From the IMG/VR virus record IMGVR_UViG_3300026484_000053, positions 64,001 through 128,000 of that record: a DNA stretch of 64,000 bases. The stretch is one strand, 5' to 3'. The notes below the pieces were generated by a model that saw nothing but the letters and a program-made list of their open reading frames with translations, was not told the DNA's origin and did not search any database. Of this stretch, positions 2,466 through 48,386 are shown piece after piece (position 1 is the first letter of the stretch; each line of letters starts with the position of its first letter). Source of the DNA: a virus. Made by a program: the position numbers and the translations under genes.

Positions 2466-2532
2466 TTAATGCTACGTTTAATACTGCGTTTAATGCTGCG
2501 TTTAATACTGCGTTTAATACTACGTTTAATAC
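2466..2532. repeat. 12-bp imperfect tandem repeat (ttaatRctRcgt x5.5)
   Basis: Directly visible, immediately after the terminase stop. Confidence 0.9.
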
Positions 2533-4748
2533 ACATCTTCCATATCTCTTCTCCAGCCTGCACTGTCGAAGGGTTCTTCTGAAGCATGTTCTATATCTGA
2601 ACTAAATCCCATGTTCATAATCTTACACATTTCTAATTCTTCTTGTTTTTGCTCTTGCGCTCTTTGCTCTAAAAGATCTATAAATCCCTTAAAGTCATCA
2701 AAGTTTTTTATATCAAGCATAGGTGCAAATAACAGTGCTGTAGCCATAACCATGTCATCTTTATAACCGTCTTCAGCACTGTAACTTCCGTTTTTCTTTT
2801 CTATAAAATTAAATAATTGCTCTATAGTAACATGATCTTTAAGAATAAGCATATCTTCTTCAATAAATTTCTTTAAAAGACTAAGTATCTGTCTTTTAGT
2901 TTTTGTAGTAGTTCTAAAACCTAATAAGTTAGCACTTGCTTTTTTCTTTTTCTTTTCACGGAATATCTCACCTTCGTACTCATAGTTGTAATTCAGTGTA
3001 TCAAGTACGCCTATACCAATGTTATTCTCTCCTACTATAAGGGCTTTATTATAATAATTACCAAGATCAAATAATCTACCTGGCATTACCATATAAGACT
3101 CTGATATGTTGGCTGCTGCTACTTCCTTAAAAGGTATTGACGTCACGTCAAATACATGGACCCCTGCATCATCTTGGCCATCAATTTTAGGATCGAATGT
3201 AAGAATATAATGCTTACCTGATTCAGGTTCTTCAAATATTCTTAGTCCTTTAAATATTTTATCTTGTATTATTTCTTCTTCTGGTAATGCATTAAGACAT
3301 TTTAAAGCTTCGGCTCCTATTAAAGTAGCTGAAGAACCGACGAAAGCATTTTTAAAATTCTGTGCGAAATGTATTTCTCCATTTTTAGCTACTTGCTCTT
3401 GTTGAAATTGTTCAGGAGATTTTTTCGAACCGTCTTTATTCCATCTTGGTACATCTTTCCAAGATGCTTCAGCTATTCTGTATCCGTTTACTCCTTCTCT
3501 TGCTCCCTTAACAATTTGATAGAAATGATTTAATCCATTAGCTGTACTACTAAATATAATTTGTGAATCTTTAAACGATGCCATAGCTGGAGTAACAGAA
3601 TCCAACATATCATGAAATAGATTAGCTTTAATAAAAGATGCCTCGTCTATATATGCATATCTAAGAGAGTAACCCCTGAATGCGTCGCTATTTGAAGCAC
3701 TAATAAGTATTCTATTGTTATTAGTAAGTTCTATGGATTGCTTATTCCAAGATTTAACCCCAGGTTGCATCCAGATTGGTAAGTTCATGTAAATATCTCG
3801 TATTTTAGTTAATACTTCTTGAGCTAGCGATACTTTATTTGCTGCTACACCTATATTAATATCTTCTTTTATAAGAGCAATCCATAGCAAATAACAAGCG
3901 ATAGTAACTGTTTTACCGCTGTTATGACTAAGTATTCCATCACTATAAAACAACTCGTCTAAAGAGTCTAAAGATATATCATACATGTTTTCAAATACAC
4001 CTGTATGTTCTACACTTATTACTTTTGAATACCCTTCAGTAGTGATTAACTCCTGATTTAAAGAATTTTCTAAATGAACTTCTTCGTTACTAGAGTTAAT
4101 CACTACATGTTTAGGAGATCCAGATAAAGTCATACCATTTTCTAAAGTTATGTTTAGTACTTCGTATTTATGCGTTACGTAAACGTAATTTATATTAGAA
4201 CTTTCAGATGTACTTAAATCTTTATTAGTGCTTATGTTTTTACAGTTTAAAGTCCTAGAACTTATAAACGTGTCGTGATTTTCGATTTTAAATTCATTAG
4301 TTGCACTGTCGTATAATTCTTTAATAGTTATTTCTTCGTTGTTAACTTTTAACTTTGTATTTCCTGCAACGCACTGTCTAGGAAAAAATACTACAATGTC
4401 TTCTCCAGTAACTAACTGCTCTTCTAGATTTAGTTGATATTCTCTAGGTTCTGGTCTTGTTATTCCTTCTTTAGTAAGAATTCTGCAATAATTCCTTCTG
4501 AAATAGAAATAATCTTCATAAGCTGATTTAATTTCTATTTGCTGCATTTCAGACATAGGTATTTTAACATCTGCGCCTCTTAATCCATTTATTCCTGAAA
4601 AACTTATCTTCTGGCCAAACGCGTCTAAATAAAAACCGTTTTCATCTTTTTGCGTATCAATTGCTTCTAATAATTGATCTTTTGTTTTGTTGTCTAGTTC
4701 ATTACCGTTATTATCTTTAGCTAGAACGTCATATAATCCTTTTGACAT
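2526..4748 (-). CDS. gp17: Terminase large subunit gp17, intein-containing
   Basis: PREYQ (Q motif), RQ/SGKT Walker A split by the intein, YIDEASF Walker B, FSSTANG, nuclease DPKIDGQD and DDMVMA motifs. Confidence 0.97.
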   Translation of the reverse strand: MSKGLYDVLAKDNNGNELDNKTKDQLLEAIDTQKDENGFYLDAFGQKISFSGINGLRGADVKIPMSEMQQIEIKSAYEDYFYFRRNYCRILTKEGITRPEPREYQLNLEEQLVTGEDIVVFFPRQCVAGNTKLKVNNEEITIKELYDSATNEFKIENHDTFISSRTLNCKNISTNKDLSTSESSNINYVYVTHKYEVLNITLENGMTLSGSPKHVVINSSNEEVHLENSLNQELITTEGYSKVISVEHTGVFENMYDISLDSLDELFYSDGILSHNSGKTVTIACYLLWIALIKEDINIGVAANKVSLAQEVLTKIRDIYMNLPIWMQPGVKSWNKQSIELTNNNRILISASNSDAFRGYSLRYAYIDEASFIKANLFHDMLDSVTPAMASFKDSQIIFSSTANGLNHFYQIVKGAREGVNGYRIAEASWKDVPRWNKDGSKKSPEQFQQEQVAKNGEIHFAQNFKNAFVGSSATLIGAEALKCLNALPEEEIIQDKIFKGLRIFEEPESGKHYILTFDPKIDGQDDAGVHVFDVTSIPFKEVAAANISESYMVMPGRLFDLGNYYNKALIVGENNIGIGVLDTLNYNYEYEGEIFREKKKKKASANLLGFRTTTKTKRQILSLLKKFIEEDMLILKDHVTIEQLFNFIEKKNGSYSAEDGYKDDMVMATALLFAPMLDIKNFDDFKGFIDLLEQRAQEQKQEELEMCKIMNMGFSSDIEHASEEPFDSAGWRRDMEDVY
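3921..4373 (-). mobile_element. Mini-intein (151 aa, residues C126-N276) without homing endonuclease
   Basis: Begins CVAGNT, has block B-like SGSPKH and block F MYDISL, ends SHN followed by Ser(+1). Removing it restores FPRQ-SGKT. Confidence 0.93.
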
Positions 4749-7916: not shown

Positions 7917-8639
7917 ATGAACTTCAATCAAGGTAACACTAATAATAACGAGTATATGTTATTTAGATCCCAAACTGAGGAGCTAATAAACTTATATGGT
8001 GTACCAGTTACGTATATAAACGTAGTTAAGGAGAATCAAGATAAAGTATTTGGAGAGCATTCTCATATCAAAACTACTGACACTCACGAGTTATATATGC
8101 TTCCTGAAGATCCGCAAGGTTGGGAAGGCGACGGTGGACTTTTTAGTTCATTCGGATTAGAAAACTTAGATAGCGTCACGTTGTTTGTTTCAAGAAATGA
8201 TATGGAGAAAATCCATCCAGCTTTGACTGATAACGAATCGGGTGAATTACAGGTTAATGATATACCTAATGGTAGCTTATGCGTGTTTGAAAGTGACAGA
8301 ATTATGGAAGTGACTTCTTTCAAACTGCATGCAGAAGGTGCGAATAACATATATACTTCTAAATTAGGTAAAAACGTTTATAAACTTGTTATGACTACTT
8401 ATATGCCAAATGGAGATAACGTGTCTTCAGTTGATGATGTACAGGAGGACTATGAAAGTTTTGGAGATCTTGATAAAATATTCGGTAAAATAGCTGAAGA
8501 CAAAGTTGAGCAAGAGCATATTGCAGAAGAGAGAATTATGGAAGATGAAGTGGTTTATCCTGCTCCTGTTAGGAAAAAACCAATAAGAGCTAAAGTAAAT
8601 GAAATAAGTACATTAGGTGTATTTGGAGATTTAGACTAG
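7917..8639 (+). CDS. gp14: Neck protein gp14
   Basis: EELINLYGVPVTYI...FGE and GWEGDGGLFSSFGL..LDSVTLFVSR match the gp14 family. Confidence 0.85.
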   Translation: MNFNQGNTNNNEYMLFRSQTEELINLYGVPVTYINVVKENQDKVFGEHSHIKTTDTHELYMLPEDPQGWEGDGGLFSSFGLENLDSVTLFVSRNDMEKIHPALTDNESGELQVNDIPNGSLCVFESDRIMEVTSFKLHAEGANNIYTSKLGKNVYKLVMTTYMPNGDNVSSVDDVQEDYESFGDLDKIFGKIAEDKVEQEHIAEERIMEDEVVYPAPVRKKPIRAKVNEISTLGVFGDLD

Positions 8640-8652
8640 TTTAGACATATAA

Positions 8653-8661
8653 TGTTATAAT
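8653..8661 (+). promoter_or_regulatory. Extended -10 sigma70-type promoter (TGTTATAAT)
   Basis: TGnTATAAT upstream of ORF 8885. Confidence 0.5.
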
Positions 8662-8742
8662 AGCATAGATTTAAAATATAACCTTACGCTTCTACGCTTC
8701 TACGCGCTATATTTTAGTCACATTTTGGCCGCTTTTAGTTAG

Positions 8743-8750
8743 TATAAATA
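8743..8750 (+). promoter_or_regulatory. T4-type late promoter
   Basis: TATAAATA upstream of the structured element and ORF 8885. Confidence 0.6.
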
Positions 8751-8790: not shown

Positions 8791-8868
8791 TGATTAGAGA
8801 TTTTAATTATTGGTAGCTCTCGCAGGTCCTACCAATAATTAAAGTGACCTGCGGTCACTCTCTTATCA
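8791..8868 (+). other. Multi-stem structured element (RNA leader or DNA cruciform)
   Basis: 15-bp perfect inverted repeat 8802-8816/8829-8843; 6-bp hairpin gtgacc-tgc-ggtcac 8844-8858; closing stem 8791-8800/8859-8868 (9/10 bp); loop 8821-8828 complementary to 8846-8853. Confidence 0.75.
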
Positions 8869-8884
8869 ATTAATAGGAGATAAA

Positions 8885-10861
8885 ATGAAAGCAAAATTAC
8901 AAGCTCAGTCAAATCTAAATTTTGACAATATAAGCTCATTATTATTATCTTCTATAAAAACTAACAAATTCAATCAAGCTAACAAATTCAAACAATCTAA
9001 ATATAAATCTAAATTAAAGAAAAAGAAGCATATTAATGCTATATACCCTAGTTTAAGCGTTCTTAAAATGCATAAAGAATACATATCAAGCCTAGATAAC
9101 GCACCGCAATCTAGAAGTATAGATATACTTATTGACGTTATAATCGATTTTACTAAAATGCACAGAACTAATCATATGCTAAGTAAGACTAACGGTCATC
9201 TGCTTTTAAGTTCTGAATTCATGAAAAAGTCAATTAGGCATTTCAACACCAGAAGCAACCTTACAGGTACTTTAAGAATAATCACTGGTTTTTATAACAG
9301 AACAAGAAAAGGTAACAATAAAGACAGACTTGGTGCAAGTACTTATACTAAAATAGAGCAAGAAGACACTACTTATGGGTGTGATAAAAATGTACATGAA
9401 GCAGTTAAAGAATATCTACTAAGTACTGATCCTAAAGCAGATGACCATTACGAGCAAATATCTAAACCTAAGGAAAAATCTAATAAAGACAGTAAGAATT
9501 TCCTTAAGGCAATATCAACTCCTGTAAAAGCCCTTAAGCAATGCGAACAATGCGAACAATCTAACCATTATGAGCAAGGTAGTAAAACGACGCAATCTAT
9601 AAAGCAATACAGATTTGACTATAAAGATATACAAGATGAGCTAAATGTTAATAGCTTAGCTAACAGACTAAAAGAAAAAGAACGATTAAATGAGTATATG
9701 AAAGAACAAGTACGTAACGACACGTATAAGCATGCATACCAAAAATACATTTATAAGAAAAATATTGCTGAAAATAACGAGATAATACGTTATTGTAAAG
9801 ACTTCTTTGCTAAACTAACTCTTAAAGGTAATATTCGAAGCACTCAGTATTATACAATAGACATAAAAGAAAGTACAAGTATGAGAAATGGTAGAGTATA
9901 TTCTTACTTTACGTCTTTACCATCTAAAGTAAGAGACTTTATATTTAATGGAATATCACTTGACGGTAAAAACATGGCATTCGCTACGTTATATAACAAG
10001 TACGCTAAAGAAGGACTTGATCTACCATATATGAAAGACTATGTACAGAACAGAGAAAAGCACATCAGACTATTATGCGACTTTGCATATATTGAAGCAA
10101 ACGTCCTAAACGGCTATGAAATGATAGAAGATACAGATTGTAGCGGCTATACTAAGCTTATAATATATGATTACGCTGGAGAAGTAAAAAAGCATAGAAT
10201 GACAAATCTGTATAAAAAAATGAAGAAAGAAGCTAAAATGTTATACTTAAGTGCTCTATTCGGATCTAATCTTAATGAACACTTCACTGACGACAGTACA
10301 TTAAAAATGTTAAGAAGAACGGCTACAGGTGTAAATTATGATAATCCTGCGCATCATTTTATTAAAAACCTTAAATCTGATCTTCTTAAGTGCTGCGCCT
10401 TTAGTAATGTAAAAGTTAAAGATCTGGCTAATGAATTTATGAAGATAGAGACAAGTATGATGAATGAAATACAAAATACGCTTAAGTCAGACATTAAAAA
10501 TACTATAAGAATACATGATGAAGTTATTATACCTTTTATACCTAGTAAAGGTAAAGATACTATAAGAATAAGTTCTATTAATAAAATAGAACAGATATCT
10601 GATCTATATAACGTAAAGATATCTAATGTAGATGATTTATACGATTATGCTTATTATCATAATAGTTGCACTACTTGTAGTACTTGTAGTACCCAATCAA
10701 CACCAGCAGAGATTAGTATAATCGAAAATAATAAAGTACATAGTATCATTAGTAATACAAAGCTATATGATAATGCTACGTATAAGAACTTTAGTTTCTT
10801 TGTTAGAGCTAATAAGCTAAATTACAAAGATAAAGTACCAATTTCGAGCTGCAATAGTTAA
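8885..10861 (+). CDS. Family-A polymerase / T7-type single-subunit RNA polymerase-like palm protein
   Basis: NGRVY, SLDGKN, KxxxKxxxxxxxFG and RIHDEV occur in the order of T7 RNAP/PolA motifs, with the canonical internal spacing of motif B; AGGAGA RBS. Confidence 0.6.
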   Translation: MKAKLQAQSNLNFDNISSLLLSSIKTNKFNQANKFKQSKYKSKLKKKKHINAIYPSLSVLKMHKEYISSLDNAPQSRSIDILIDVIIDFTKMHRTNHMLSKTNGHLLLSSEFMKKSIRHFNTRSNLTGTLRIITGFYNRTRKGNNKDRLGASTYTKIEQEDTTYGCDKNVHEAVKEYLLSTDPKADDHYEQISKPKEKSNKDSKNFLKAISTPVKALKQCEQCEQSNHYEQGSKTTQSIKQYRFDYKDIQDELNVNSLANRLKEKERLNEYMKEQVRNDTYKHAYQKYIYKKNIAENNEIIRYCKDFFAKLTLKGNIRSTQYYTIDIKESTSMRNGRVYSYFTSLPSKVRDFIFNGISLDGKNMAFATLYNKYAKEGLDLPYMKDYVQNREKHIRLLCDFAYIEANVLNGYEMIEDTDCSGYTKLIIYDYAGEVKKHRMTNLYKKMKKEAKMLYLSALFGSNLNEHFTDDSTLKMLRRTATGVNYDNPAHHFIKNLKSDLLKCCAFSNVKVKDLANEFMKIETSMMNEIQNTLKSDIKNTIRIHDEVIIPFIPSKGKDTIRISSINKIEQISDLYNVKISNVDDLYDYAYYHNSCTTCSTCSTQSTPAEISIIENNKVHSIISNTKLYDNATYKNFSFFVRANKLNYKDKVPISSCNS

Positions 10862-10990: not shown

Positions 10991-11410
10991 ATGAAATTTA
11001 AAACAATAAAATCGCCTACAACAGGCAAAATATGGATGGACAGAAACATCGGTGCCAAGAGAAGAGCCAAAGCAATTGACGATAAAAAGTCATATGGTAA
11101 GATATTAACTTGGGACGAAGCAGTAGATGTATGTAAAAAATACCCAGGCTTTAGATTACCTACGATAAAAGAGCTTAAATCCGAGAATATACAAAACAGT
11201 AATGACGCATTTAATAAACTTAAACTACCTTCTGCTGGTGACGGTTTTGCGTACAGTCAAGGTTCTTGGGGTACTCTGTGGTCGAGTTCTATCGAAAGCA
11301 AGCGCTCTTTCGCATTGGGCTTCCATTCAAAGTCTACGAGCAAGTACAAATACAATCGCGAATTTGAATTTTCAGTAAGATTAATAATGAAAAGAAGGCC
11401 AAATAAATGA
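10991..11410 (+). CDS. Small C-type-lectin-fold protein (FISUMP/DUF1566-like), candidate DGR target
   Basis: GKIWMDRNIGA, TWDEA..C...FRLPT.KEL, LWSSS, R.FEFSVRL are typical of CLec domains used as DGR targets. Confidence 0.8.
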   Translation: MKFKTIKSPTTGKIWMDRNIGAKRRAKAIDDKKSYGKILTWDEAVDVCKKYPGFRLPTIKELKSENIQNSNDAFNKLKLPSAGDGFAYSQGSWGTLWSSSIESKRSFALGFHSKSTSKYKYNREFEFSVRLIMKRRPNK

Positions 11411-11809: not shown

Positions 11810-12010
11810 ATGAAACTTCAAACTTCTATTAATGGTACGTTAAAAGAGTATCTTCATCTTTTAATAGGTAAAAAATTCAAGAGTGCTTCAGGTAACATTT
11901 ACGAAATTAATGTTCTACCTTTCGCTTTTTATGCTATATCTTTTAATGATAACGTATTATTTACGTCTAACAGAGCAGATGTTATAAATGATTGGCTGTA
12001 CAGAAACTAA
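11810..12010 (+). CDS. Hypothetical protein (66 aa)
   Basis: Follows the promoter repeat; TAATG-coupled to the helicase. Confidence 0.55.
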   Translation: MKLQTSINGTLKEYLHLLIGKKFKSASGNIYEINVLPFAFYAISFNDNVLFTSNRADVINDWLYRN

Positions 12011-14700
12011 TGTATTTAACAATTTTTAACGCTATTAAAAGCACTAACAAAGCAAATAAAAAGCCTATATCTCAATATGATGACGAGTCATTTATTTTTT
12101 ATAATGTTTATTGCGCATCCTTAAGACAGTGTTTTAAGGTTCTATCTAACGAATACATCCTTAGCCAAACCATAAATATTGACGAACCTTTAAAACTGAC
12201 TAGAAGTGTAAAGGTTTTAAAAGAATTTAAAAGTGACAATTTAGAAATACTACCATTAGATTTAGATTACATTTATACGCAAGAGATGTGTTTAAAAGTT
12301 ATACAGTTTTTTAAAGATATGAACTTTAAATGTATATTAGGTAAAAGTAGAGGATTTAATAACAAAGATAAATTTACTCTTAAAGGATTTATCGTACTAG
12401 ACATTAAAAATGACAGAGCAGTAATATCAGGATTGCTAAATTACATCCAAACTTTAATGAATGAATATGGATTAGAAGGAGTTGAGTTAGACTGTGCTAT
12501 TAAAACAATAAATTCAGTGCAAAGCCCAGTCTTAAATAATGATGTTTTATATATTAATGAGTCAAGTAAAGCAAGAGTATTAAATAACACAGACTTTAAT
12601 ATTATAGAAGTGCAGTCTTATAACGATACGGTAGTTGATTTATCTAGCTTAAATACTAAAGAATCAGCATTAGACACTTGTTTAGAAATATTTGCACAAA
12701 AAGGATTTACAGCCGTATCGCAAAGAGAAGATACTAGCATTAATTTTAGTCATCCAAGTGAGAAGAAGTCTAAAGGTGGTTTCTTCTTCTTTAAAGAATC
12801 ACCAACTATAATGCACCATCCTAATAGTGCAAGGACTATTAATATAGCTCAAGAATTTAAACGTACCGCTATTGGTAAAGCATATTTTATTGAACGTGGA
12901 AAACTTATACAGAAGAATATGTTAGAAAAACCTGATTATGGTATATTCGTAAATGAAAGATACCTTAACGTAGAGCCTAAAATTAAAGAAATACAGGATT
13001 TTGTTCATAAAGATACAGAAGTTTTAAAGATAAAATCAGCTATGGGTACAGCTAAAACGAATATCATATCAGCAGTTATTAAAGAAGCTCAAATTAAAAA
13101 AGAAAAGTTAAGAGTTATTTTAGTGTCTAATAGAGTAAGTGTAGCAAGAGATTTTGCTGATAAGTATGAAGAATATAATATGTCATATTATAAAGAAGTC
13201 CAAAACAGTAAAACAGAGCCTTTTAATCTTATAGTACAGTTTGATAGCCTTTATAAATTTAAAGTGCATGAATATGATATTGTCATTTTTGACGAGTTTA
13301 TAAGTCTTTTATTGCATCATCAAAGTCCGTTAGGTACGAATGGTAATTTAAACGCTGCAAAATTCAGAGTTTTATTAAATAAGAAAATTCTATGTTGCGA
13401 TGCTTTTCTTACTGGATACGAAGACGTTTTCTTTAAAGACAGAAAAATAGTACAGTTTGCTAACAAATATCGTGACGATGTTAAACTTATAGAGTATAAA
13501 GATAAAGGTAGATTTTGTAAAGATATAATAAACAATTCACTTTCACTTAAAGAAGGCGAACATATTAGCGCATCTTTTACTTCTTTAAATATGCTGAAAG
13601 TTGTACAACAGGAGTTACTTTCAAAAGATATAAGGGTAATCAGTCTTACAGGAGAGACACCAGATACTACTAGAGAATTAATTTATAAAAGATTTAAAGA
13701 AGACAGCCACAACGCATTTCAGGTTATACTTTATACTCCTACACTTACAGTAGGAGTAAGTAATGTTAATAACGTATTACAGCACTACCATTATGACTCT
13801 AGTATGAGTTGTGACGTTATTAGTTCATTACAAATGATTAAAAGATCTAGAACAGCTAAAGAGATACGATTTTATTTAGAAGATAAAAAGGCAATTAACG
13901 AAACGTCGGCTGCTAAACTAAATGAGATAGCTAAAAACAATATTGTAGAGTTCTACAATAACAGTGATAAAACTCTTCTAGTAAAATTAAATGAAGATAC
14001 AGGAGAGGTTGAACTTACTAAATTAGCTTACTATCTTAACAATATTAATGCTTTTAGTAATCTATTAAGCAACGATCATGCTAATGCTTTTAAAGTTCTG
14101 CTGAAATACCAATTTAATGGCGGCTACGATTCTGCTGAAATTAATGAAGAAATTTATGAATTCGACTATAAATCAAAAATAAAAGAGATTAAAACTAAAG
14201 AAAAAGAAAACGCTGCTAATTTATTGGAAGAATATTCTTATTTTAATTATACTGAGCAAGATGTTAACGACGCTAAGTTTAGTACTATAGAACTTAAAGA
14301 CGAAGAAAAAGTTATGCTGATGAAAGATAATATCCAAAAGCTATTTAAGCACCAAATACCAAAACATATTTTAAATGAACTTGTTAAGATAGATCAAAAA
14401 GATAATATAGTTAGAAAGATTAAAAACTACCATTTGTTTAGTGGCGACAAAGATTATTTAATGTATAAGCTTAGTTTTACAGTAAGTAATAATCTTCATG
14501 TTAGTAAGCGATTCGTTAAAAATATTAAGATAGCTTGTGAAGTGAAAGAGTTAAAAGACGCTTACTCTAACAACGATATAAAACGTATAGAAAGTAACAT
14601 ACAAGGTTTTGGAGAATTTATAAAAGAAATAGGTTATGTTAAACAAAGAAACAAGTACAGATTAGATAAAAGAATACTAACATATCTAAAGTATCTATAG
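12010..14700 (+). CDS. UL9/origin-binding-protein-like SF2 helicase with putative N-terminal primase (AEP)-like domain, paralogue 1
   Basis: KSAMGTAKT, VSNRVSVA, FDEFISLL, CDAFLT, YTPTLTVGVS and LQMIKRSRT align in order with UL9-type motifs. The N-terminus has LPLDLD...GKSRG...KGFI. ATG at 12010 is preferred over the TTG at 11992. Confidence 0.8.
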   Translation: MYLTIFNAIKSTNKANKKPISQYDDESFIFYNVYCASLRQCFKVLSNEYILSQTINIDEPLKLTRSVKVLKEFKSDNLEILPLDLDYIYTQEMCLKVIQFFKDMNFKCILGKSRGFNNKDKFTLKGFIVLDIKNDRAVISGLLNYIQTLMNEYGLEGVELDCAIKTINSVQSPVLNNDVLYINESSKARVLNNTDFNIIEVQSYNDTVVDLSSLNTKESALDTCLEIFAQKGFTAVSQREDTSINFSHPSEKKSKGGFFFFKESPTIMHHPNSARTINIAQEFKRTAIGKAYFIERGKLIQKNMLEKPDYGIFVNERYLNVEPKIKEIQDFVHKDTEVLKIKSAMGTAKTNIISAVIKEAQIKKEKLRVILVSNRVSVARDFADKYEEYNMSYYKEVQNSKTEPFNLIVQFDSLYKFKVHEYDIVIFDEFISLLLHHQSPLGTNGNLNAAKFRVLLNKKILCCDAFLTGYEDVFFKDRKIVQFANKYRDDVKLIEYKDKGRFCKDIINNSLSLKEGEHISASFTSLNMLKVVQQELLSKDIRVISLTGETPDTTRELIYKRFKEDSHNAFQVILYTPTLTVGVSNVNNVLQHYHYDSSMSCDVISSLQMIKRSRTAKEIRFYLEDKKAINETSAAKLNEIAKNNIVEFYNNSDKTLLVKLNEDTGEVELTKLAYYLNNINAFSNLLSNDHANAFKVLLKYQFNGGYDSAEINEEIYEFDYKSKIKEIKTKEKENAANLLEEYSYFNYTEQDVNDAKFSTIELKDEEKVMLMKDNIQKLFKHQIPKHILNELVKIDQKDNIVRKIKNYHLFSGDKDYLMYKLSFTVSNNLHVSKRFVKNIKIACEVKELKDAYSNNDIKRIESNIQGFGEFIKEIGYVKQRNKYRLDKRILTYLKYL

Positions 14701-14781
14701 GGTCTATATCGTCTCTTATCTTCGTTTAAGCTTTTATTATAAATATTTTTATAACATCACATAACACTATAAAGGCATATA

Positions 14782-17403
14782 ATGCATGAACATAAAACTA
14801 AAATAACTTTATTTGACGGTCAAGGAGATACTAAAATTCCTTTTTCTACAAGAGAAGATGGATCTTTTATTTTTGCCACTCTAGAATTAAGTTACACTGA
14901 AATAGTAAAAGTTAAGCAAGATTCTTATTCCCTAGCTTATTCATATAATATACAAGAACCAATATTAACTCACAGAGCAAAATTATCAAACGTAGCGCCT
15001 ATAAATGATGGAGATATTGTAGATTCAATTACGTTTAATATTAAAGTCGAAGATATTAATATAGAAGACGCTATAAATGTACTTAGAAACACACAATATG
15101 ATATGATAGCACTAAAATCAAAGCAAGGATTAACTTGCATATTAAAAGTACAAATGGAACTAAAATATATTTACTACAGCATGATGGAACTTCAAAAATT
15201 ATTAGGTTCTCAATGTAGCATTAAAGTACCTAACATTTACGACATCGAGAAACCGTTTGAAAACCTTGAGGTACTTTACGAAAGAAACACTAATAAAGCT
15301 TTACATAATATAATGATAGAGAAAGAACTTGAAAACACATCTTCTATGACATTTATAGAGATATGTTTATCAGAATTTGAAAATATGGGATACGAACAAA
15401 CTAGCATAAAATCACTTAAAGGTAAACCAGGAGTGTTCTTATTTACTAAAGACCAGGATAAATTTCATTTTAACGAAGAATATCCCATTAAAATGCAAGG
15501 TATTTACGGTGCAAAATCTGAGTCAATATTTTATCTTATAAACAAAACAAAGCAAGGTAAAGAGTGGCTTCAAAACAGAAATAAAAAAGAACAGATAAAC
15601 GCTTTAGAAAATAAAAAATCTAAGAAAAGCAAAAATAATATCATAATAAACGAGAGATATCTTAAGGCTGAAGATTTAAAAGCAGTTACAAATAAATTCA
15701 TTCAAACTAAGGACTGCGTTTTAAAGATAAAATCAGCTATGGGTACAGCAAAAAGTGACGTTATTTATGATATTATAAAGCAAGCACATGAAGATGGCAT
15801 GAAGATTATAGTTGTTTCAAACAGAATATCAGTAGCGAAAGATTTTGCAGAAAAGTACAATATGGATATCTATCAAAATATGTACAACAGTTCTAATTCG
15901 ATAGTAGTACAGTTTGATAGTTTACACCGTTATAATCCAGCTGATTATGACTTAGTAGTATTTGATGAGTTTATGAGCTTATTGCTGCACCATAGAACTT
16001 CTTTAGGTACAAACAGTAACATTAACGCTATTAAATTTAAAATCCTACTCCAAAAAAGAGTAATACTTGCTGATGCCTTTCTTACTGGATACGAAGACGA
16101 GTTTATAAAAGATCGTAAAATTATACAGATAGAAAATACTTATAGAGATTGTACTGATCTTTTTAACTACTCTAATAAAGAGCACTTTATACAAACTTTA
16201 ATAGACGAGTCTCAAAAGTTAAAAGATGAAGAGCATATAAGTGCGTCGTTTACTTCATTAGCAGCATTAAAATTGGTATACTACTCTCTTAAAAAGAAAG
16301 GTGTAAAGGTAGTTAAACTAACAAGTGAAACGTCTGAAGATACAAGGCAGTTAATTTATAAAAGATTTAAGGAGCAAACGCATATTGCATTTCAGGTTAT
16401 ACTTTATACTCCTACACTTACAGTAGGAGTAAGTAATGTTAATAACGTCACTAAACATTTTCATTATGACTCTAGTATGAGTTGCGACGTTATTAGTTCA
16501 TTACAGATGATTAAAAGATCTAGAACAGCTAAAGAGATACATTTCTTTTTGCAGAATAGACAACTTCATAAAGACATCGATCTTGAAAGTATAAACAGAA
16601 GAGCTGAGCATAATGCTGTAAAATACTACGCTAATAAAGATAAAGCATTACTTTTAGATGTAGATTATGAAACAGGTGAGATGAAGCTTACACCTTTAGC
16701 GCATTATATTAACAAGATAGAAGTGTTTAACAATATCCTTATGAACAATCACAAGAATGCATTTTTAGTACTTCTATCTTACCAGTTTAATTCAGCACCT
16801 ATAGAAGTTAAAGGTAAAGTATCTTGGAAAATGAGAGATCTTACTAGACAAATAAAAGAAAAAGAATTACAAGACGCTTTAAGTGTTTTCGATAAATTTA
16901 AAGACGTTAAATTAAGTGATAAAGAAGTTAAAAGACTAAGATTTAAAACGTCAGAGTTATCAGATGAAGAAAAAGTAGCACAAATAAAACATGATATTCA
17001 ATCTATGTATAGCAAAGAAATTCCTCAAAAATCGCTAGACGAATTAACGCGTTTAGAAATAGAACAGAACTTTAAGTTTACTGATAAAGTTAAATTAAAT
17101 AAGATATTTCAAAACGAAGACGACAGTTATGCAAAATACGAATTATCTGAAGCTATAAGTAATAATATAGGAATGTTGCAAGATAATAATAAAGAGACAA
17201 TAAACTTTTTAAAATATCTTATTATTAACGATAACGCAGCATTAAAAGGATCTTATACTTTAGATGACATAAAAAGAATTGATTTCGAAAGAGGTAAAGG
17301 TTCTAAACTTGCTAATTTCTTAAAAAGCTTAGGATATACGTACAGCGCTGGTAAATGGGAAGTAGACCTAAGAGTTCTTGGTTATATTAAGTACCTTGAT
17401 TAA
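14782..17403 (+). CDS. UL9/origin-binding-protein-like SF2 helicase, paralogue 2
   Basis: Same motif series (KSAMGTAKS, FDEFMSLL, ADAFLT, YTPTLTVGVS, LQMIKRSRT); the N-terminus lacks an obvious DxD. Confidence 0.8.
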   Translation: MHEHKTKITLFDGQGDTKIPFSTREDGSFIFATLELSYTEIVKVKQDSYSLAYSYNIQEPILTHRAKLSNVAPINDGDIVDSITFNIKVEDINIEDAINVLRNTQYDMIALKSKQGLTCILKVQMELKYIYYSMMELQKLLGSQCSIKVPNIYDIEKPFENLEVLYERNTNKALHNIMIEKELENTSSMTFIEICLSEFENMGYEQTSIKSLKGKPGVFLFTKDQDKFHFNEEYPIKMQGIYGAKSESIFYLINKTKQGKEWLQNRNKKEQINALENKKSKKSKNNIIINERYLKAEDLKAVTNKFIQTKDCVLKIKSAMGTAKSDVIYDIIKQAHEDGMKIIVVSNRISVAKDFAEKYNMDIYQNMYNSSNSIVVQFDSLHRYNPADYDLVVFDEFMSLLLHHRTSLGTNSNINAIKFKILLQKRVILADAFLTGYEDEFIKDRKIIQIENTYRDCTDLFNYSNKEHFIQTLIDESQKLKDEEHISASFTSLAALKLVYYSLKKKGVKVVKLTSETSEDTRQLIYKRFKEQTHIAFQVILYTPTLTVGVSNVNNVTKHFHYDSSMSCDVISSLQMIKRSRTAKEIHFFLQNRQLHKDIDLESINRRAEHNAVKYYANKDKALLLDVDYETGEMKLTPLAHYINKIEVFNNILMNNHKNAFLVLLSYQFNSAPIEVKGKVSWKMRDLTRQIKEKELQDALSVFDKFKDVKLSDKEVKRLRFKTSELSDEEKVAQIKHDIQSMYSKEIPQKSLDELTRLEIEQNFKFTDKVKLNKIFQNEDDSYAKYELSEAISNNIGMLQDNNKETINFLKYLIINDNAALKGSYTLDDIKRIDFERGKGSKLANFLKSLGYTYSAGKWEVDLRVLGYIKYLD

Positions 17404-17916: not shown

Positions 17917-18543
17917 ATGCTTAGAAGACAACTACCACTACAACCAGACGGTTCAGTAAATAGATTCGACCTGCCAGAAGATTATACTGGTGGTGACGTT
18001 ACGATATTTGTTAATGGACAATTATTAGCTACAAGAGATATAGAAGATCACGTATACGGATTTGAAGTTAAACTAGATGACGAAGATAATGTTTATTTCC
18101 TAGAATTCTACACTGTACTTGAAGATGAAGAGCATCTATACGTTCTTTATGATGGTGAAGGTGACGGAAATTTCGCTGGAGAAGGTACAATCAGTGTTGA
18201 AGCAAATGTATGGCAACTTATAGCTCTTCCATTAGAAAACCAAGTATGGCTTGATGGTAAGATGCAGAAAAGTGATGAGCAAAGTACTATTAAGAATTGC
18301 GTCGTAGATCAACTAGAAGATGTATACGATAGACCAGCTGAAGAATTATTTAAAGTGGCTAATTGTGCTATAGGTGATGAGGGTGGACAATTAAGAAATT
18401 ATATACCTGGATTTACTAAAGATACTTCTGTACATAATTTCCCATTAGTATATATTGACGATAACGGTGATACAACTAGTAAGGAAATAGTAGGTTTTTG
18501 GATTAGATCCTTAGAAGAGTTTATTATAACTTGGAAAGTGTAA
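17917..18543 (+). CDS. Probable virion structural protein
   Basis: Acidic, beta-rich (DGSVNRFDLP...VTIFVNGQL); co-transcribed with gp3. Confidence 0.45.
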   Translation: MLRRQLPLQPDGSVNRFDLPEDYTGGDVTIFVNGQLLATRDIEDHVYGFEVKLDDEDNVYFLEFYTVLEDEEHLYVLYDGEGDGNFAGEGTISVEANVWQLIALPLENQVWLDGKMQKSDEQSTIKNCVVDQLEDVYDRPAEELFKVANCAIGDEGGQLRNYIPGFTKDTSVHNFPLVYIDDNGDTTSKEIVGFWIRSLEEFIITWKV

Positions 18544-47486: not shown

Positions 47487-48386
47487 CTAGAACAGGTCTG
47501 ATACGAAAGGAGTTTTCTTACTATAAGAAGATGTACTAAATTGATCGATGCTAAAACCAGATTTAGTACACATTTTAGCATTTAATTCTGTTTGCGCTTC
47601 TTCTTTAACTTTAGTGTATTGTCTATGCTTATTTTGTTGTTTAAATAGTTTTACTTTTTCTTGTGGTGTGTACTTTCTATCTTTTTTACCTTCTATTAGC
47701 TGTAAATCAAGTTTACCATTTGAAGGATTAATAGGTAGTACATAACCATTAATGCTATTACCGTCTTTATATATTACAGGATCTATATCTTCCACACTAT
47801 TCTTACCTTCTGTACAGTTCTCATTAATACATTCTCGCATTTTCTTTATAGATTGTATAAGAGCAAATAAGTTAGTCATCTCTAAGAAATTATTAAAAAT
47901 ATCTATTGCTACGTATAATGCTCTTTCAAATGCATTACCTACCATTGACATAACATCCAGTAGTTCGTTGTTAACGTCACGTTGTAGTCCACTAAGATAA
48001 GCTAACGATGGATTAGCATAATCCCATACTGCATTTTTAGTTAACCAGCTTGGTGATGGAGCACTTGGACTTAAAAAAGATAAATCCATATTCAGTACAT
48101 CTTCTAGACATTCTCTCTGTTTAGTGTCTTTTTCTGTACTTTTACTACCTTCGCCGCCTACATCTACGTTAGAGTCTATAATTTTATCAGTCATATCATC
48201 TAGTTTGTCAACAGCGTCTTGCACGTTACCGTATAATCTATTAGCAGTCATAATAGTTGATTTTACTTGACTAACAGCGTTGTTATATCTTTCAATAGCA
48301 CCCTTACACTTAACTCCTTTATCAAAGTTATCGTAATGCAGCGTGCTTGGCGTGTTTTTTGTAAAGTTATTTATGTTATAAACCAT
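47487..48386 (-). CDS. Hypothetical protein in baseplate operon
   Basis: 299-aa ORF between gp5 and gp25 with a GGAG RBS. Confidence 0.55.
   Translation of the reverse strand: MVYNINNFTKNTPSTLHYDNFDKGVKCKGAIERYNNAVSQVKSTIMTANRLYGNVQDAVDKLDDMTDKIIDSNVDVGGEGSKSTEKDTKQRECLEDVLNMDLSFLSPSAPSPSWLTKNAVWDYANPSLAYLSGLQRDVNNELLDVMSMVGNAFERALYVAIDIFNNFLEMTNLFALIQSIKKMRECINENCTEGKNSVEDIDPVIYKDGNSINGYVLPINPSNGKLDLQLIEGKKDRKYTPQEKVKLFKQQNKHRQYTKVKEEAQTELNAKMCTKSGFSIDQFSTSSYSKKTPFVSDLF

Follow-up and report, generated by a model that had tools for sequence, protein, structure and literature searches.

The 64,000-nucleotide stretch analysed here, referred to below as the window, is part of a 193.7-kb IMG/VR virus record that is rated 100% complete (G000:C1:64001-128000; positions carrying the prefix G000:C1 are those of the record). 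It carries a gene for a polymerase-like protein of 658 residues, here named P0001, whose ATG lies 5 nt after an AGGAG (8876-8880) and whose upstream region is highly structured. The initial annotation, made from the letters of the DNA alone, had read this gene as a divergent polymerase of the superfamily that unites family-A DNA polymerases (PolA) with T7 RNA polymerase (RNAP), with mixed signatures of the two. The open reading frame (ORF) and its four motifs stand at all the residues given there and in the same order: N335-G-R337-V-Y339, L359-D360-G-K-N, K447...K451-MLYLSALF459-G460 and R542-I-H544-D545-E-V. Catalytic residues that are invariant among the relatives of P0001, together with two AlphaFold models whose best matches are family-A polymerases alone, bear out that reading, and they support the view that P0001 represents a new, deeply divergent family within the family-A/T7-RNAP superfamily. 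The features of the locus are collected in the table.

Features of the P0001 polymerase locus and its neighbourhood (window coordinates; SD, Shine-Dalgarno sequence; pLDDT, predicted local distance difference test; SF2, superfamily 2)
Feature	Position	Strand	Basis and remarks
Sigma-70-like extended -10 promoter-like site	8632..8661	+	10/12 matches, TG present; consensus match only
TATAAATA, T4 late-promoter consensus, 135 nt before ATG	8743..8750	+	Consensus match; gp55 homologue in genome
Perfect hairpin, 15-bp stem (8802-8816 / 8829-8843), 12-nt loop	8802..8843	+	z -5.3, 0/200 shuffles
Small hairpin, 6-bp stem, 3-nt loop	8844..8858	+	Segment 8846-8853 exactly complements loop bases 8821-8828 (8 nt; 0/2000 flank shuffles)
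SD-sequestering stem, 8859-8866 with 8873-8880, one G.U	8859..8880	+	Leader folding
P0001 gene, polymerase-like protein, 658 aa	8885..10861	+	Open frame with SD; 7 distant homologues and 1 paralogue
N-terminal region, aa 1-231	8885..9577	+	Basic, predicted helical, low pLDDT; conserved patches KKKKR..SILPHP, GNN.D..GCS.Y
Family-A-type polymerase domain (thumb, palm, fingers), aa ~232-588	9578..10648	+	Foldseek, VIA-align on two models
T/DxxGR-type motif N-G-R337-V-Y	9887..9901	+	R337 invariant; aromatic at R+2 kept; hhalign R337 = Klenow R668
Motif A: beta-strand ending at D360, then A365 at steric-gate position	9950..9982	+	Both invariant; DSSP strand 356-361, helix 364-375
Motif B (O-helix) K447...K451...L455...F459-G460	10223..10264	+	K451, L455 invariant; helix 441-459
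Family-specific patch F-M519-K-x-E522-T523, last fingers helix	10436..10453	+	M519, E522, T523 invariant
Motif C R-I-H544-D545-E-V, beta-hairpin tip	10508..10525	+	H, D invariant; strands 541-543, 546-550
SF2 helicase, phrog_10417 type, 902 aa, possible partner	11992..14700	+	PHROG match
Second phrog_10417 helicase, 873 aa, 39% identical to first	14782..17403	+	TATAAATA at 14738

Two models underlie the assignment of the fold. The whole-protein AlphaFold2 model, built on an eight-sequence alignment, has a mean pLDDT of 57, with residues ~300-590 at 70-90, and a second AlphaFold model of residues 225-600 has a pLDDT of 66.6 and a predicted template modelling score (pTM) of 0.64. For both models, all 50 listed Foldseek matches in the PDB are family-A DNA polymerases (Bst, KlenTaq, Klenow, Pol theta, apPOL), with probabilities up to 0.99 for the whole protein and 1.00 for the domain, E-values of ~1e-2 and alignments of ~310-345 columns. 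VIA-align, a structure search independent of Foldseek and run here over 48,161 chains, ranked Pol theta first for the whole protein (Z 12.4, root-mean-square deviation 5.8, 284 residues), followed by Klenow (11.2), Aquifex Pol I (9.7) and apPOL (9.3), and then by Pol nu (8.8), T7 DNA polymerase (7.7), yeast mitochondrial RNAP (7.6) and T7 RNAP (6.5). The domain model gave Klenow 9.6, Pol theta 9.1, mitochondrial RNAP 7.6 and T7 RNAP 6.6; its match to the mini virion RNAP (mini-vRNAP) of phage N4 was weak, Z 4.9 over 284 residues. Ranks 1-10 for the whole protein and 1-11 for the domain belong without exception to the PolA superfamily (Z 12.4 to 6.6), with helical-hairpin noise beneath them. 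The comparison of a predicted structure with Klenow, T7 RNAP and N4 vRNAP, which the initial annotation had proposed as a check for a palm fold, therefore returned a family-A fold, with scores falling from Klenow (11.2 and 9.6) through T7 RNAP to N4. The matches of both models indicate that residues ~232-588 form a compact thumb-palm-fingers domain of the family-A superfamily. A lead towards an archaeo-eukaryotic primase (AEP) or D5-like primase (ESM Atlas, D5_N/DUF5906, TM-scores of 0.29-0.37 on a low-confidence model) found no support in the alignment-based models, which match family-A polymerases, and Pfam gave no match.

A register with Klenow comes from sequence comparison. A local hhalign comparison with nine PolA sequences was not significant (E 0.5), yet it placed every motif in register with Klenow, pairing R337 with R668, R350 with R682, D360 with D705, A365 with E710, K451 with K758, L455 with F762, F459-G460 with Y766-G767 and H544-D545-E546 with H881-D882-E883. 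The secondary structure of the models fits this register and offers an indirect check on the juxtaposition of the two Asp residues: D360 stands at the end of a strand with a helix after it, K451-F459 belong to a long helix and H544-D545 occupy the tip of a beta-hairpin. The N-terminal region (residues 1-231) is less well defined, with pLDDT below 50 over long stretches. It had been described as a basic, DNA-binding region; its basic character stands and it is predicted to be helical, while for DNA binding there are weak structural leads only (a winged helix-turn-helix, HTH_36, DnaD_N and PriCT_1). An exonuclease-like fold was absent from the structural matches of the P0001 model, in which residues 1-231 were modelled as part of the whole protein.

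The description of the gene as an orphan was nearly right, in that it has no annotated relatives. Pfam, PHROGs, NCBIfam and PADLOC do not recognise P0001, and Pfam is also empty at E <= 0.1 for the eight family members scanned. PF00476 (DNA_pol_A) matches neither P0001 nor anything else in the genome, and the T7-like RNAP profile PF00940 gave no match to P0001. A phmmer search of PDB sequences found nothing for P0001, and the family profile returned only noise there (E > 0.06). Searches by tblastn of 50,697 phage records found nothing for P0001 or for its paralogue P0009, word-indexed searches of 5.8 billion proteins returned the query and nothing else, and IMG/VR scans yielded no further family locus. 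A small family of nine does exist, and it includes a second copy in the same genome. Seven relatives of 517-775 residues (E 1.4e-15 to 3e-4, 22-24% identity) emerged when 1.84 billion cluster representatives were scanned exhaustively with HMMER. The family profile, run against all ORFs of the genome, then recovered P0009 (683 residues, E 2.5e-17), which lies outside the window at G000:C1:187145-189196 (L012:11146-13197) beside genes for topoisomerase II, a dNMP kinase and a staphylococcal nuclease-like (SNase-like) nuclease.

Across the alignment of these nine sequences, P0001 and P0009 included, identity to P0001 is only 15-28%. Eleven internal columns are nevertheless invariant in all nine: R337, R350, D360, A365, K451, L455, M519, E522, T523, H544 and D545. 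Six of them (R337, D360, K451, L455, H544, D545) are catalytic positions that the initial annotation had already proposed, and P0009 keeps the two arginines, the Asp, the Ala, the Lys, the FMKxET patch and the His-Asp pair. G460 is kept in eight of nine members, and a Tyr or Phe follows at R+2 of the GRx[Y/F] motif in every one. The Phe found in place of Tyr in motif B is present as described (F459), the position being F, L or M in the family and V in P0009. The DNA-polymerase-like HDE of motif C is likewise present in P0001, but its Glu is not a family feature (E in five members, A in two and G in two). With branches of ~2 substitutions per site, the invariant residues are strong evidence of selection on the active site, which on this showing is probably intact. 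The phylogeny of the nine proteins is largely unresolved and holds one weak split (85/87), with P0001, P0002, P0003, P0005 and P0007 in one group and P0004, P0006, P0008 and P0009 in the other. Judged by their sequences, P0001 and P0009 are ancient paralogues in one genome; P0002 and P0006 share one metagenome, so the two-paralogue state may be typical of these phages. Contigs that carry homologues also carry T4-type genes (gp13, a gp18 fragment, a Dda-like helicase, a Toprim primase, a ligase and ribonucleotide reductase), and at least one of them comes from a hydrothermal-vent metagenome.

The residues that line the sugar-binding side of the active site distinguish this family from classical PolA enzymes. 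The steric-gate Glu of Klenow (E710) is replaced by the invariant A365, F762 by the invariant L455 and Y766 by F459 or its equivalents, and the conserved Arg stands in a GRx[Y/F] motif of the T7/mitochondrial RNAP type, as opposed to the GRLSS of PolA. T7 RNAP has a Gly (G542) at the steric-gate position and a Met (M635) at the L455 position, and its Y639 selects ribonucleoside triphosphates (rNTPs). Most discriminating positions of the P0001 family are thus in the RNA-polymerase state, the signature as a whole being mixed; the spacing between motifs is PolA-like and counts against an RNA polymerase. Positions A2 and B4 govern the discrimination between dNTPs and NTPs in PolA enzymes (Czernecki et al., PMC10201439), and removal of E710 leads Klenow to incorporate ribonucleotides, according to Astatke 1998, cited as reference 117 in PMC10201439. 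With Ala for the Glu gate and Leu for the aromatic residue that stacks on the sugar, the P0001 enzyme should accept ribonucleotides. From its residues it is probably ribonucleotide-permissive, and RNA or mixed stretches would be a likelier product than faithful DNA synthesis.

The region between the promoter-like sites and the start codon forms the second distinctive part of the locus. Boxes of the TGTTATAAT type (extended -10) occur 14-17 times in the genome, and the TATAAATA box also stands 21-52 nt before neighbouring late genes. Downstream of this box, the leader of P0001 contains a long perfect hairpin, a small hairpin and a stem that sequesters the SD. Just two bases separate the long stem from segment 8846-8853, so that the stem and the pairing of its loop with the 3' flank are mutually exclusive alternatives. 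Hairpins of this length are rare. Only five with stems of at least 13 bp occur in the whole 193.7-kb genome, and the two longest (16 and 19 bp in a one-mismatch scan, 15 and 19 bp as perfect stems) precede the two paralogues, 40-90 nt upstream. The 19-bp hairpin at 187055-187108 belongs to the P0009 leader. Among the loci of the relatives, the longest hairpin of L006 (17 bp) and of L007 (22 bp) lies 26-52 nt before the ATG, L002 has a 21-bp perfect stem ending ~80 nt before it, and in L025 a tandem pair of 21 and 19 bp, whose ends lie 133 and 40 nt from the ATG, differs by a compensatory double change.

Six of the nine leaders fold much better than their shuffles (z -4.4 to -6.7, 0/200). In each of the six, a segment lying 0-21 nt past the hairpin forms a perfect complement to the apical loop; these complements measure 8, 11, 12, 10, 6 and 11 nt and are reached by 0, 0, 1, 0, 58 and 0 of 2000 flank shuffles. 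The loop and flank sequences all differ while the pairing persists, which amounts to covariation, and the long stems are perfect Watson-Crick helices free of wobble pairs. A descriptor scan of the genome found this architecture nowhere else at comparable strength; its sole other match with a 9-10-nt loop-flank complement is a weaker hairpin with a 9-10-bp stem inside a coding region (47532-47581), which is probably unrelated. Rfam holds no matching family for the leader (mir-15 at E 0.19, far below threshold). The element is present in both paralogue groups and so probably predates the duplication. On this comparison of leaders, it is a previously undescribed, covarying and switch-like cis-element, and post-transcriptional control of polymerase synthesis is the simplest reading of it; acting as DNA, it might alternatively be a site of recognition or initiation. 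The leaders of P0002 (L003:60-176) and P0006 (L022:9890-10003), both from one sample, share a near-identical cassette, TGTTATAAT ... ATATAAATATTTTTATAA ... AGGAGG, and the two paralogue types of that phage therefore seem to be co-regulated.

Several familiar kinds of hairpin were considered for the leader and set aside. On the + strand the hairpins are not followed by a T-run, as intrinsic terminators would be. The 7-bp/3-nt hairpin at 8843-8859 is a poor candidate for an N4-type promoter, being unique in the genome and not kept in the other leaders; a perfect-stem scan (7 bp, loop of 3-5 nt, at least 4 G/C) returned seven hairpins in the genome that are unrelated in sequence. The promoter hairpins of N4 have 5-7-bp stems and 3-nt loops and stand at several early promoters, whereas the hairpins of the P0001 family have stems of 15-22 bp and are found only before the polymerase genes themselves. 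The gp43 hairpin operator and the gp32 leader pseudoknot of T4 are autogenous translational operators and resemble the leader in that they, too, are structured and stand downstream of the promoter and ahead of the SD at genes for replication proteins of T4-like phages. The nearest described counterpart is the PeSL cassette of T4-like phages, in which a promoter, a stem-loop and an SD precede accessory genes, the short stem-loop lying upstream of an early promoter and occurring in many copies per genome (PMC4122927). The long stems of the P0001 family and their alternative loop-to-3'-flank pairing set the element apart from both the T4 operators and PeSLs. Order, length and copy number also differ from those of PeSLs, the element lying downstream of a late promoter in most members and, in this genome, only at the two polymerase genes. 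A tandem repeat of CTTCTACG occupies 8688-8706, an intergenic position upstream of the late-promoter box, and a triple copy lies on the other strand at G000 ~18250-18280; as an iteron it was rejected, since other copies sit in ordinary sequence elsewhere.

The genome that carries these elements is T4-like. Profile matches identify a T4 gp20-type portal, which is ~35% identical to portals of Campylobacter phages, a gp14-type neck protein, endonuclease VII, the large terminase, the tail tube and sheath-associated proteins. A tblastn search with T4 proteins found gp43 (PolB), gp41, gp44, gp46, gp47, gp55, gp39, gp42 and beta-glucosyltransferase, and the gp43 match agrees with that of PF00136 in a 778-residue frame at G000:C1:~164-166 kb. 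The sole gp61 match in the genome is weak (G000:C1:30088-30324, E 4e-5, 74 residues) and covers the zinc-finger part of this primase. The premise of the initial annotation, that a T4-like phage relies on a family-B DNA polymerase and the host RNAP, agrees with the presence of a family-B replicase and a homologue of the late sigma factor gp55. As the phage has a PolB of its own, together with gp41, gp55, a weak gp61-like match and early promoters of the sigma-70 type, the 658-residue polymerase is an extra, accessory enzyme. Recurrent non-coding 12-mers comprise only the sigma-70 extended -10 box, in a scan that a small or degenerate promoter set would escape; with this TGTTATAAT-type box and TATAAATA alone recurring, P0001 is unlikely to serve as a general transcriptase.

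The possible partners of P0001 are the tandem SF2 helicases that lie 3' of it. A phrog_10417 helicase lies 0.5-8 kb from the polymerase gene in G000, L003, L024 and L006, all four of which fall in the weakly supported tree group of P0001, and for genes of the P0009 group no helicase was found within the flanks available. This linkage of helicase and polymerase is suggestive. Homologues of the helicases occur in Campylobacter phages (28% identity) and in some Vibrio phages. Both helicases have N-terminal regions of ~330 residues and C-terminal regions of ~280 residues without a known family; the N-terminal region was considered as a primase and this was dropped, since it has no AEP or Herpes_ori_bp profile match and no PDB sequence match. 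Just 3' of the polymerase gene, a small lectin-like ORF (10991-11410) shows weak Lcl_C and Fib_succ_major matches. It is not a credible variable region of a diversity-generating retroelement, as the entire 193.7-kb genome contains no template repeat. Elsewhere in the window, the large terminase (2526-4748, - strand) has 740 residues, more than T4 gp17, and may contain an insertion, since PHROG profiles match it in two parts, residues 31-412 and 274-688.

We favour an account in which P0001 is a divergent family-A-type polymerase that is ribonucleotide-permissive, expressed late, gated by its leader and associated with a helicase, and we consider this account, taken as a whole, to be probable. 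P0001 would be a genuine and probably active nucleotide polymerase, as the modelled fold and the conserved active site suggest, making RNA or mixed RNA/DNA stretches (primers, short fill-ins) on DNA templates and not carrying out faithful replication. Its gene would be transcribed from the late TATAAATA promoter, and translation would be gated by the long hairpin, the alternative loop-flank pairing and then the SD-sequestering stem; the leader could be an autogenous operator of the T4 gp43/gp32 kind. P0001 and the phrog_10417 helicase would probably work jointly on intermediates of late replication or recombination.

Several observations weigh against this account. Sequence homology to PolA is not significant, with the hhalign E-value of 0.5 standing beside empty Pfam and PDB searches, and the confidence of the two models is medium (mean pLDDT 57 and 66.6), resting on 8-9 aligned sequences. 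DNA polymerases obtain higher structure scores than RNA polymerases, and where T7 RNAP has its rNTP-selecting Tyr the family has F, L or M (V in P0009), so that the proposed permissiveness need not amount to a preference for ribonucleotides. The leaders of three of the nine genes (P0002, P0006 and P0007) are unstructured (z +0.4 to +0.8). As to the helicase, its proximity may reflect gene order inherited among related phages, and CP81, the one Campylobacter phage checked, has the helicase and no detectable homologue of the polymerase.

The alternatives differ mainly in what the enzyme would synthesise and where it would begin. P0001 might be a site-specific single-subunit RNAP or origin primase of the T7 RNAP, POLRMT or N4 vRNAP kind, whose N-terminal domain would recognise a DNA site or an extruded hairpin and which would start RNA de novo, transcribing a few genes or priming DNA. 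The GRx[Y/F] motif, the small residue at the G542 position, the aliphatic one at the M635 position and the variable third residue of motif C all fit such an enzyme, as do the helical, non-exonuclease N-terminal domain with its weak winged-helix leads, the superfamily-level scores of yeast mitochondrial and T7 RNAPs (Z 6.5-7.6) and the long hairpin adjoining each gene. POLRMT itself primes at the stem-loop of OriL, and N4 vRNAP is a very divergent superfamily member that carries the T/DxxGR motif, is missed by sequence searches and uses DNA hairpins as promoters. Against this, DNA polymerases score higher (Z 9-12), N4 mini-vRNAP reaches only 4.9, and P0001 is about half the size of T7-like and mitochondrial RNAPs (T7 RNAP, Rpo41/POLRMT), with no Pfam RNA_pol match and without conservation of Y639. 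Its R337 and D360 are 23 residues apart as compared with ~110 in T7 RNAP, so that the large insertion between GR and motif A is missing, and no equivalent of the specificity loop or the intercalating hairpin appears to be present in the 350-residue core. Only the sigma-70 extended -10 box and TATAAATA recur as promoter-like words, no cognate promoter class having been found by a scan that would miss a small or degenerate set, and the phage carries a homologue of gp55 and a weak match to gp61. We regard this alternative as unlikely, and give about the same low standing, ranked just behind it, to a polymerase for DNA repair, gap filling or end joining of the Pol I or Pol theta type, which would mature branched or gapped late DNA before packaging together with SF2 helicases. 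The fold agrees with such a role, since Pol theta, Klenow, Pol nu and apPOL are the best structural matches and family-A DNA polymerases share with P0001 the thumb-palm-fingers arrangement (Z 8.7-12.4 over 235-284 aligned residues), the short spacing, and the order and register of the T/DxxGR Arg, the motif A Asp, the [K/R]xxxK...G of motif B and the His-Asp of motif C. P0001 also has HDE like PolA, its linked helicase is reminiscent of the helicase-polymerase fusion of Pol theta, and the late promoter and the neighbouring endonuclease VII, portal and terminase genes would suit the processing of late DNA. What distinguishes the P0001 family from these enzymes lies in the active site and the domain plan. 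There is no Pfam DNA_pol_A match, the core measures ~350 residues, Tyr766 is not kept, its place being taken by F, L or M, and four of nine members have lost the motif C Glu. The invariant Ala for the gate Glu and Leu for F762/Y fall on both positions that discriminate dNTPs from NTPs in PolA, no exonuclease-like domain of the kind that PolA enzymes normally need for stability was detected, and the family falls outside the BLAST-based classification of PolA (PMC10201439).

The remaining possibilities turn on the leader or on the loss of catalysis. The structured leader, whether as RNA or in the form of extruded DNA, might serve its polymerase as a template, a primer or a site of recognition, and the product could be a decoy or another anti-defence nucleic acid. 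The covarying element is exclusive to the polymerase genes and was retained after an ancient duplication, its long stems are perfect without wobble, and the tandem copies in L025 differ by a compensatory double change. Retron and defence-associated (DRT) reverse transcriptases offer a parallel, using a non-coding RNA encoded just upstream, and Pol theta, which heads the structural matches, is able to copy RNA. The last stem of the element, however, contains G.U pairs and sequesters the SD, in keeping with ordinary translational control, three members lack the element, and neither PADLOC nor Rfam gave a match; we hold this version to be distinctly improbable. A little less doubtful, in our view, is the broader notion that the polymerase gene and the covarying hairpin element form one cassette, in which the enzyme, with its PolA fold, would recognise the leader, use it for priming or copy it, in the manner of retrons and DRT systems or of OriL and POLRMT, for specialised initiation or counter-defence. 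Least probable of all is a catalytically dead protein with a polymerase fold, serving as a nucleic-acid-binding regulator or structural component, or a resemblance that is an artefact of modelling. No sequence library recognises P0001, model confidence is medium, and the canonical E710, F762 and Y766 are all replaced; but the catalytic Asp, Lys and His-Asp, residues of a kind that dead enzymes usually lose first, are invariant over ~2 substitutions per site, and the fold matches are confined to one superfamily and reproduced with two models. We would therefore rank the roles with a ribonucleotide-permissive accessory polymerase first, ahead of a site-specific RNAP or primase, a DNA repair polymerase, a leader-templated system and, last, a dead enzyme.

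Few enzymes have been studied so well or used so widely as the family-A and T7-type polymerases, and the P0001 lineage indicates that their superfamily is wider than sequence-based classifications show. No profile detects this lineage, its core of ~350 residues comes with no detected exonuclease domain and it lacks the steric-gate Glu, so that the family could provide a compact scaffold whose sugar selectivity may be relaxed. Its leader adds a new cis-element with clear covariation. The maintenance of a second and a third polymerase as paralogues beside a T4-type replication set points to a previously unrecognised step in the late DNA metabolism of these phages or in their conflict with the host.

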